Of a stretch of 43,509 nucleotides of DNA, positions 31,633-31,856 are shown in pieces (positions within the stretch are counted from its first letter, which is position 1; each line of letters starts with the position of its first letter). The position numbers and the translations under genes were made by a program. Below the pieces are notes generated by a model. It saw only the letters and a list, made by a program, of their open reading frames with translations. It searched no databases and was not told the DNA's origin. The DNA comes from a virus (lineage: Duplodnaviria; Heunggongvirae; Uroviricota; Caudoviricetes): IMG/VR virus record IMGVR_UViG_2703718810_000003. The stretch is one strand, 5' to 3'.

Positions 31633-31737
31633 TCAGCTCCCCAGACGATCCATCAAAAGCACGACCAGGCAGTAAACACCCACAACAACAATAACGGCCA
31701 GAGCGCCTTCCATTGCCAGTGAGATATCATCCGACAT
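31633..31737 (-). CDS. 34-aa single-TM peptide
   Basis: MSDDISLAMEGALAVIVVVGVYCLVVLLMDRLGS; AAGGAGGG RBS. Below track size cutoff. Confidence 0.4.
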   Translation of the reverse strand: MSDDISLAMEGALAVIVVVGVYCLVVLLMDRLGS

Positions 31738-31772
31738 ATTCCCTCCTTTGGTGTGAATCCCGGCGAACGTTT

Positions 31773-31856
31773 TTACCCCCACCGACAAATAACATATATT
31801 AAAAAAGCGATAACCATAGCAACGCCTGTAATTGCAAATGCTTCAGGCCAGTTCAT
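31773..31856 (-). CDS. 27-aa hydrophobic peptide translationally coupled to DUF551 gene
   Basis: MNWPEAFAITGVAMVIAFLIYVICRWG; ATG overlaps upstream stop (ATGA). Confidence 0.3.
   Translation of the reverse strand: MNWPEAFAITGVAMVIAFLIYVICRWG

Follow-up and report, generated by a model that had tools for sequence, protein, structure and literature searches.

Two probable genes closing the early operon of a lambdoid Escherichia coli prophage, each for a single-helix membrane peptide

The minus strand of the window, by which we mean the whole stretch of 43,509 nucleotides analysed here (IMG/VR record IMGVR_UViG_2703718810_000003), carries two consecutive short open reading frames within positions 31633-31856, named here pepA (27 codons) and pepB (34 codons), which are very probably genes. 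The best explanation overall, which we hold to be reasonably likely, is that both are genuine, separately evolving small genes, and that their products are accessory peptides which cross the inner membrane once and bind to a larger protein there. An earlier note on this DNA had proposed that the two peptides be given up if there was neither a translation signal nor conservation of the reading frame in related prophages; the frames are conserved there, and the pepB orthologue of the Sakai strain has been reported as translated (Hucker et al. 2017, PMC5597208).

Gene anatomy and prophage context

Over 31470-31900 the window is 100% identical to the RefSeq genome of E. coli SCU-106, in whose annotation the locus belongs to a lambdoid prophage adjoining ompW, whose left arm consists of int, xis, exo and dicB and leads into the immunity region. 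The minus-strand genes of the window succeed each other as cro/YdaS-like, YdaT, O-like, P-like, DUF1627, small accessory genes, Ea22-like, DUF551, pepA and pepB. They are faced by convergent ibrA/ibrB-like genes (29611-31466, plus strand; the IbrA-like product is PAPS-reductase-like), beyond which a hypothetical gene, DUF968, RusA and Q are found. From this gene order it follows that both peptides close the replication and accessory block of the PR-side early operon, in line with the earlier comparison of the pair with peptides of prophage early regions. A terminator scan identified a terminator-like hairpin at 31518-31539, common to the minus-strand early operon and the plus-strand ibrA/ibrB-like genes that converge on it, with a good T-run on the plus strand and a weak one on the minus strand. 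The lysis genes are located at approximately 18.5-20.7 kb, downstream of Q, and pepA and pepB upstream of it. Within the lysis cassette, between an endolysin-like ORF (19383-19916) and an Rz-like ORF (18591-19085), we observed a 32-aa hydrophobic ORF (19087-19185, minus strand), the third most hydrophobic small ORF in the window, which may be another unannotated membrane micro-gene.

The first of the two frames, pepA, extends over 31773-31856 including its stop codon, as read from the sequence and the ORF list, and encodes the single-pass membrane peptide MNWPEAFAITGVAMVIAFLIYVICRWG. Its ATG (31854-31856) overlaps the TGA stop (31853-31855) of the DUF551 gene in the form ATGA, exactly as the earlier note had described for a peptide of 27 residues. 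The upstream gene was annotated at 31853-32365 (minus strand; Pfam PF04448, E = 2.7e-20; also RefSeq at the identical locus), and RefSeq places its start further upstream, for a total of 564 nt. The gene preceding DUF551 is recorded by RefSeq as a frameshifted pseudogene in SCU-106 (L001, 4305-4483); in the window it is an intact ORF of 171 aa (32437-32952, minus strand). The Shine-Dalgarno sequence of pepA, AGGAGGT (31863-31869, minus strand), is comprised within the last DUF551 codons, 6 nt before the ATG. A GGAGG- or GAGG-like element was found 5' of the pepA ATG in every inspected relative, regardless of the upstream gene, and the ATGA overlap is invariant in most relatives, the remaining ones showing near-equivalent arrangements. 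A DUF551-pepA fusion produced by -1 frameshifting was ruled out, as no slippery heptamer could be read at the junction.

The second frame, pepB, is located at 31633-31737 including the stop (minus strand), encodes the single-pass membrane peptide MSDDISLAMEGALAVIVVVGVYCLVVLLMDRLGS, and is supported both by the sequence with the ORF list and by a RefSeq CDS (WP_072149359.1). The ORF listing extends this frame to a 51-aa ORF with a TTG start (31633-31788), and RefSeq picks the ATG behind the strong Shine-Dalgarno sequence AAGGAGGG (31741-31748, minus strand), located 3 nt before it. The limits given earlier for a 34-aa peptide with a strong ribosome-binding site are therefore exact; the earlier note did not name the strand of either frame. 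The Shine-Dalgarno sequence is kept as A[AG]GGAGGG in all 26 of the 26 downstream variants, and a search for a sigma-70-like pepB promoter on the minus strand found none.

A 22-nt near-perfect palindrome, CGATATGGAAATTCCCATATCG (31603-31624), follows 5 nt after the pepB stop and is perfect (CGATATGGGAATTCCCATATCG) in most relatives (L002, L004 and IMG/VR loci); it is not followed by a U-run on either strand, so it is no canonical terminator. Together with a spacer, the Shine-Dalgarno sequence and pepB itself, it forms a block of approximately 150 nt, which in hok-carrying relatives with pepB is flanked on both sides by GGGTAAAAACG direct repeats, and pepB therefore looks like an inserted micro-cassette. 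In relatives that do not carry pepB (L008 and 933W), the pepA stop runs directly into AAACGGTTTGCGG..., the promoter region of hokD/hokW. The hokD/hokW locus lies directly downstream of pepB in most relatives. The window has lost this locus down to about 45 nt of its promoter region (31556-31602), which precede the terminator on the ibrAB side, and the position that hok/sok takes in most related prophages is occupied by the convergent IbrA-like and IbrB-like genes.

Conservation and translation of the two frames

The pepA frame recurs at 52-93% amino-acid identity, opening on the upstream stop or a few bases from it and closing at a homologous stop. DNA identity falls to approximately 70-78% while the frame, its length, its start and stop and its hydrophobic character persist. 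Two lineages deviate in length: in the P1-like phage SJ46 the frame has 24 codons, and in one other lineage it has 25, through an in-frame deletion of two codons. The alignment shows no variation at M1, P4, A6, F7, G11 and W26, and hardly any at W3, A17, R25 and G27. We define the family by a length of 24-27 codons, an M-x-[WR]-P-[ED]-A-F N-terminus, a hydrophobic core with an invariant Gly, a C-terminal W-[GRW], and a start that overlaps or abuts the upstream stop; according to the alignment, the variants and the sequence of the window, the copy analysed here has all of these features.

The 23 unique 27-codon DNA variants of pepA differ at 13 first, 12 second and 23 third codon positions, with entropies of 10.5, 7.3 and 22.6, respectively. 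The pN/pS ratio (Nei-Gojobori), summed, like that of pepB below, over pairs of related sequences such that shared changes are counted more than once, reaches its minimum in the ATG frame, at 0.32, the other five frames ranging from 0.45 to 2.33. When the analysis is confined to codons 8-27, which leaves out the codons used to find the loci and hence the ascertainment they bring, the ratio is 0.39 (bootstrap 95% interval 0.23-0.61). Judged by this pattern of variation, pepA behaves as a genuine coding gene under protein-level purifying selection. The frame antisense to pepA was also considered: it is open in 23 of the 23 variants (pN/pS 0.45) and in the window corresponds to an 85-aa ORF with a GTG start (31753-32010, plus strand) that runs into the antisense of DUF551. 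A gene in this frame was rejected: an open frame is expected opposite a coding segment rich in NUN codons, and this one lacks a conserved start and overlaps DUF551.

The neighbourhood of pepA is variable on both sides. Six upstream proteins were tested for DUF551, and five of the six are without it, so that pepA follows at least six unrelated upstream genes, including the DUF551 genes; it is therefore an independent mini-gene and not an appendage of DUF551. Downstream, in E. coli prophages, it is followed by pepB plus hokD, by hokD alone, or by DUF4222-xis-int. This location exactly at module junctions, with unrelated genes on either side, has to be weighed as a sign that pepA is not a gene at all, and that the conserved object is a nucleic-acid element: a recombination boundary between mosaic modules, or a regulatory RNA or DNA site beside hok. 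The first 20 nt and the last approximately 12 nt of pepA are indeed highly conserved in DNA, and pepA often adjoins hok promoters. However, the codon-like distribution of variation, the minimum of pN/pS in the ATG frame, the persistence of the frame and of hydrophobicity at reduced DNA identity and the in-frame two-codon deletion are all at odds with it. Moreover, RNAalifold found no conserved RNA structure in pepA (-5.2 kcal/mol, one compensatory pair), and pepA occurs without hok before DUF4222-xis-int, before terminators, in P1-like plasmids and in phage Av-05. A non-coding element is, in our judgement, very improbable.

In some lineages pepA is disrupted, by a TAG at codon 3 in POCJ13-type phages, by a 1-nt deletion in vB_EcoS-689R5 and by a stop at codon 26 in nine IMG/VR loci, and it is therefore dispensable there. 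This dispensability, the constant position at the end of an operon or module and the conserved ATGA overlap would also be compatible with a role for the act of translating pepA and none for its product; ribosomes moving over the junction would then keep transcription coupled to translation where the accessory block ends, and so shut out Rho or cover the hok promoter. The constraint on individual residues, from the invariant M1 to the nearly invariant G27, nevertheless exceeds what a mere open frame would require, as do pN/pS values of 0.32-0.39, and a role of this kind is regarded as highly unlikely, if slightly less so than a nucleic-acid element. Selection on the peptide itself remains the preferred account of the pepA frame.

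For pepB, the 13 unique DNA variants differ at 6 first, 5 second and 11 third codon positions, and pN/pS is 0.20 in frame, versus 0.39-2.4 in the other frames. Its translation has been described in E. coli O157:H7 Sakai, where the orthologue in prophage Sp6, XECs145, was reported as translated in an uninduced culture (Hucker et al. 2017, PMC5597208). In LB, XECs145 showed a transcriptome RPKM of 79.1, a translatome RPKM of 346.1, an RCV of 4.35 and a coverage of 0.99 (PMC5597208, S2 Table), while the RCV was 1.14 in BHI and 0.01 under cold and osmotic stress; the authors predicted an inner-membrane location and their classifier labelled the ORF as "real". In that study XECs145 was called as a 54-aa ORF from an upstream ATT, a consequence of allowing rare start codons, which adds 20 residues overlapping the 3' end of pepA (PMC5597208; S2, S3 and S12 tables). 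The conserved Shine-Dalgarno sequence and the RefSeq entry ECs_5710 indicate instead the 34-aa ATG form as the probable product. Identical ORFs were collapsed in the study, and the reads may therefore stem from several prophage copies; as the pepB sequence is multi-copy in Sakai and a longer ATT-started ORF was called, the exact start is not experimentally fixed.

The RIBOseq cut-off of 30 aa (PMC5597208) excluded pepA, and neither pepA nor pepB is present in the supplements of two RIBOseq papers on EDL933. The K-12 prophages Rac and Qin contain neither of the two, which makes the K-12 ribosome-profiling data sets uninformative.

Distribution and annotation status

A tblastn search placed pepA in 92 records of phages, 933W, VT2-Sakai, the P1-like SJ46 and the virulent Av-05 among them, and in 181 plasmid records, mostly of approximately 90-100 kb and non-mobilizable, from E. 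coli and Salmonella; the two pepA plasmids that were inspected are both IncY. A scan of IMG/VR confirmed at least 500 stretches with pepA. Among species representatives, the exact (IUPAC) pepA DNA pattern matched only those of E. coli and Shigella flexneri. The alleles of P1-like plasmids include MSWPEAF[AT]TVGIVMAAALGLYSICRWW in IncY plasmids (L103 and L104, 1201-1284) and the 24-aa MSWPEAFAIVGVAMAIAAIFIFWG in SJ46 (L014, 1501-1575), and in one P1-like plasmid pepA follows a fusion protein that combines a dATP/dGTP pyrophosphohydrolase domain with a DUF551 domain.

In 933W, Stx2a_WGPS2, vB_EcoS-666R9, SJ46 and Av-05, the last a virulent member of the Vequintavirinae, the pepA match begins exactly at the end of the upstream CDS. 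The pepA CDS is unannotated in these five, and it was not annotated as such in any record inspected. The exact peptide sequence is absent from a collection of 15 billion proteins, and a 43-aa query in the pepA frame against 5.8 billion protein clusters retrieved only four mis-extended, truncated or fused ORFs. Likewise, pepA belongs to no Pfam, NCBIfam, PHROG or PADLOC family. For the two genes together, full-text searches of the literature gave no match to the peptide strings or accession numbers. Annotation pipelines miss pepA because it is shorter than 30 codons, and several records annotate wrong-frame or wrong-strand ORFs over it. Where pepA is disrupted, records carry opposite-strand or out-of-frame ORFs in its place, namely gp72 and gp73 (Shigella phage POCJ13; L003, 1962-2090) and URC08898.1 (vB_EcoS-689R5; L102, 1199-1309), which are probably annotation artefacts. 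Taken as a whole, pepA is a new small-protein family of a known kind, that of phage-encoded single-pass membrane micro-proteins, which is essentially missing from annotations and databases.

The catalogue status of pepB is different. The earlier note held that neither peptide was listed as an ORF on account of its size; for pepA this holds good in public annotation as well, but pepB is already a RefSeq CDS, as the hypothetical protein WP_072149359.1 at the identical locus and as WP_001278450, WP_001278459, WP_001278460 and ECs_5710 elsewhere. The exact pepB sequence was found on 653 contigs, and the pepA-pepB block is present in approximately 673 of 5426 complete E. coli genomes. A phmmer search of 1.84 billion representative proteins returned only relatives that are at least 82% identical, and tblastn gave no match to pepB in the sequenced-phage collection. 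Furthermore, pepB occurs only after pepA alleles that share the ...IAFLVYVICRWG half, a restriction that is most simply explained by linkage.

Comparison with the O157:H7 prophages places the pepB of the window in the same family as the XECs145/ECs_5710/WP_001278450 type, since it is an exact RefSeq match and 88% identical, over 34 residues, to the Sakai and CB9615 forms. The XECs145 locus resembles that of the window in its Shine-Dalgarno sequence, its position after pepA and its downstream palindrome, but the window allele differs from it by V17, L27 and S34, and hok is replaced downstream by the ibrA/ibrB-like genes. In summary, pepB is a narrow orphan of E. coli prophages, already known as an uncharacterised, translated hypothetical protein.

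Membrane character and possible role

The six frames of the window contain 281 ATG-started ORFs of 20-60 aa, and the most hydrophobic of them is pepB, with pepA next. Their best 17-residue Kyte-Doolittle windows score 3.15 (pepB) and 2.64 (pepA), a range in which a value of 2.5 is reached by approximately 1% of the 281 ORFs, and their best 19-residue windows, of membrane-spanning length, score 2.89 and 2.59, again the top two of the 281. The earlier description of each peptide as mainly one transmembrane helix is thereby borne out. Both helices are free of charged residues, and the peptides as a whole have net charges of 0 (pepA) and -3 (pepB). Acidic residues mark the N-terminal tails (E5 in pepA; D3, D4 and E10 in pepB), and the short C-terminal tails of 3-6 residues (CRWG in pepA, MDRLGS in pepB) each hold one Arg behind the helix (R25 and R31, respectively). 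The conserved features of pepA comprise (i) two motifs outside the helix, MxWP[ED]AF and [CF]RWG; and (ii) within the helix, the invariant Gly and a small-xxx-small spacing.

On this basis a working model can be proposed. The operon would be read in the order replication genes, Ea22-type and DUF551 accessory genes, pepA, pepB and terminator, with pepA presumably translated by coupling, its ATG lying over the preceding stop and its Shine-Dalgarno sequence in the last codons of the preceding gene, and pepB from its own strong Shine-Dalgarno sequence. Each peptide would then insert into the inner membrane; with acidic residues before an uncharged helix and one Arg behind it, the positive-inside rule predicts an orientation with the N-terminus out and the C-terminus in. 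The invariant Gly, the small-xxx-small spacing and the extramembrane motifs of pepA suggest specific helix-helix binding, and the partner may be a larger inner-membrane protein of the host or of the phage. Membrane insertion, topology, partner binding and lack of toxicity are predictions, and general rules underlie those on topology and binding. The peptides would in this way act as accessory, host-modulating or exclusion-type factors that do not damage the membrane, a mode of action that we put forward for both of them only tentatively, at somewhat less than even chances.

A comparable insertion is known from the Pf3 coat protein, which inserts N-out/C-in in a YidC-dependent manner. It shares with pepA and pepB a single helix preceded by a short acidic tail and followed by a basic residue, and the topology predicted for them is the same; the analogy is confined to insertion, with no homology, and pepA and pepB are not virion proteins. 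With respect to function, E. coli has small inner-membrane proteins of a single pass, KdpF, AcrZ, MgrB, MgtS and CydX, which act as regulators of larger membrane proteins. They resemble pepA and pepB in their length of approximately 25-50 aa, in having one uncharged helix with short polar tails, and in a non-toxic accessory role, which for pepA and pepB is proposed here. In contrast to these regulators, however, pepA and pepB are phage-borne, belong to an early lytic operon and are not located beside a partner gene, and there is no significant sequence relationship, the match of pepA to KdpF (TIGR02115) being weak and sub-threshold (E = 0.024). HK97 gp15, T4 Imm and P22 SieA are phage moron or exclusion proteins of the membrane. 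They resemble pepA and pepB as phage-encoded accessory proteins of the inner membrane (a predicted location for our peptides), and pepB is expressed in an uninduced lysogen culture (PMC5597208), but they are longer and unrelated in sequence.

The earlier note had compared both peptides with small membrane toxins or with lysis- and kil-type peptides, in which case one or both would be type I-like toxins or kil-/lysis-type products that damage the membrane or kill the host at induction. Several features agree with this: both peptides are short, hydrophobic and single-helix, as are Hok/Gef, Ldr, TisB, Ibs, ShoB and DinQ in being short and hydrophobic; they belong to an early operon, a usual place for genes that kill the host (kil and dicB, for instance), and a separate dicB gene is present on the PL side of this prophage; and hokD/hokW adjoins pepA or pepB in many related prophages, lying directly downstream of pepB in most. 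Nevertheless, neither peptide matched Hok/Gef or any other toxin family in Pfam, NCBIfam, PHROGs or PADLOC. In particular, a Pfam scan with E up to 10 gave no match to the Hok family (PF01848), whose members have approximately 50 aa and a periplasmic C-terminal domain, compared to the 27 and 34 aa of our peptides. Signs of a Sok-like antisense RNA or a structured leader were not detected either: Rfam gave 0 matches on both strands of 31300-32100, promoter-like sites on the plus strand are at chance level (4 found versus 2.2 +/- 1.4 expected), and the regional RNA fold is not unusual (z-score -0.87). Unlike type I toxins, pepA is translationally coupled to an ordinary upstream gene, with no long structured leader. 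Many type I toxins of E. coli, such as ShoB and Ldr, are cationic, whereas the helices of pepA and pepB are uncharged and the peptides neutral and acidic, respectively.

Other killing functions fit no better. The lysis cassette is found elsewhere in the window, and pepA and pepB lie neither next to an endolysin or spanin gene nor end, as holins do, in a charged hydrophilic C-tail, their tails being CRWG and MDRLGS. Lambda Kil, KilR and DicB are not known to be transmembrane proteins; proteins of this soluble, FtsZ- or MinC-acting type gave no match in Pfam, NCBIfam or PHROGs, and one hydrophobic helix dominates each of our peptides. Finally, the efficient translation of the pepB orthologue in exponentially growing Sakai cells in LB (RCV 4.35, PMC5597208) speaks against a toxic product. 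The resemblance to toxins, lysis proteins or kil thus found no support, and we consider a killing function improbable.

Accessory peptides that bind a larger membrane protein accordingly remain the preferred reading. A bolder version of it, which we offer as speculative and rather unlikely in its entirety, would regard pepA as an unrecognised 27-residue family in phages of Escherichia, Shigella and Salmonella (lambdoid and Stx prophages, prophages of the P1-like plasmid type and virulent Vequintavirinae), always the coupled tail of a preceding gene, whose periplasmic MxWPEAF and cytoplasmic CRWG would target one conserved machine of the host inner membrane to the benefit of the phage (e.g., in exclusion or host takeover), with pepB as an orphan partner cassette of recent birth or acquisition.

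Even in genomes as well studied as 933W, the Sakai prophages and the P1-like plasmids, annotation has overlooked pepA, a conserved gene under purifying selection. The case of pepB is a clean illustration of an orphan micro-gene with a narrow distribution, one both translated and subject to purifying selection. Current concepts are unchanged by these results, whose value lies in better annotation and in two tractable small-protein candidates in Stx-phage biology. The occurrence of pepA in temperate, plasmid-borne and virulent phages suggests a general interaction between phages and the host membrane.
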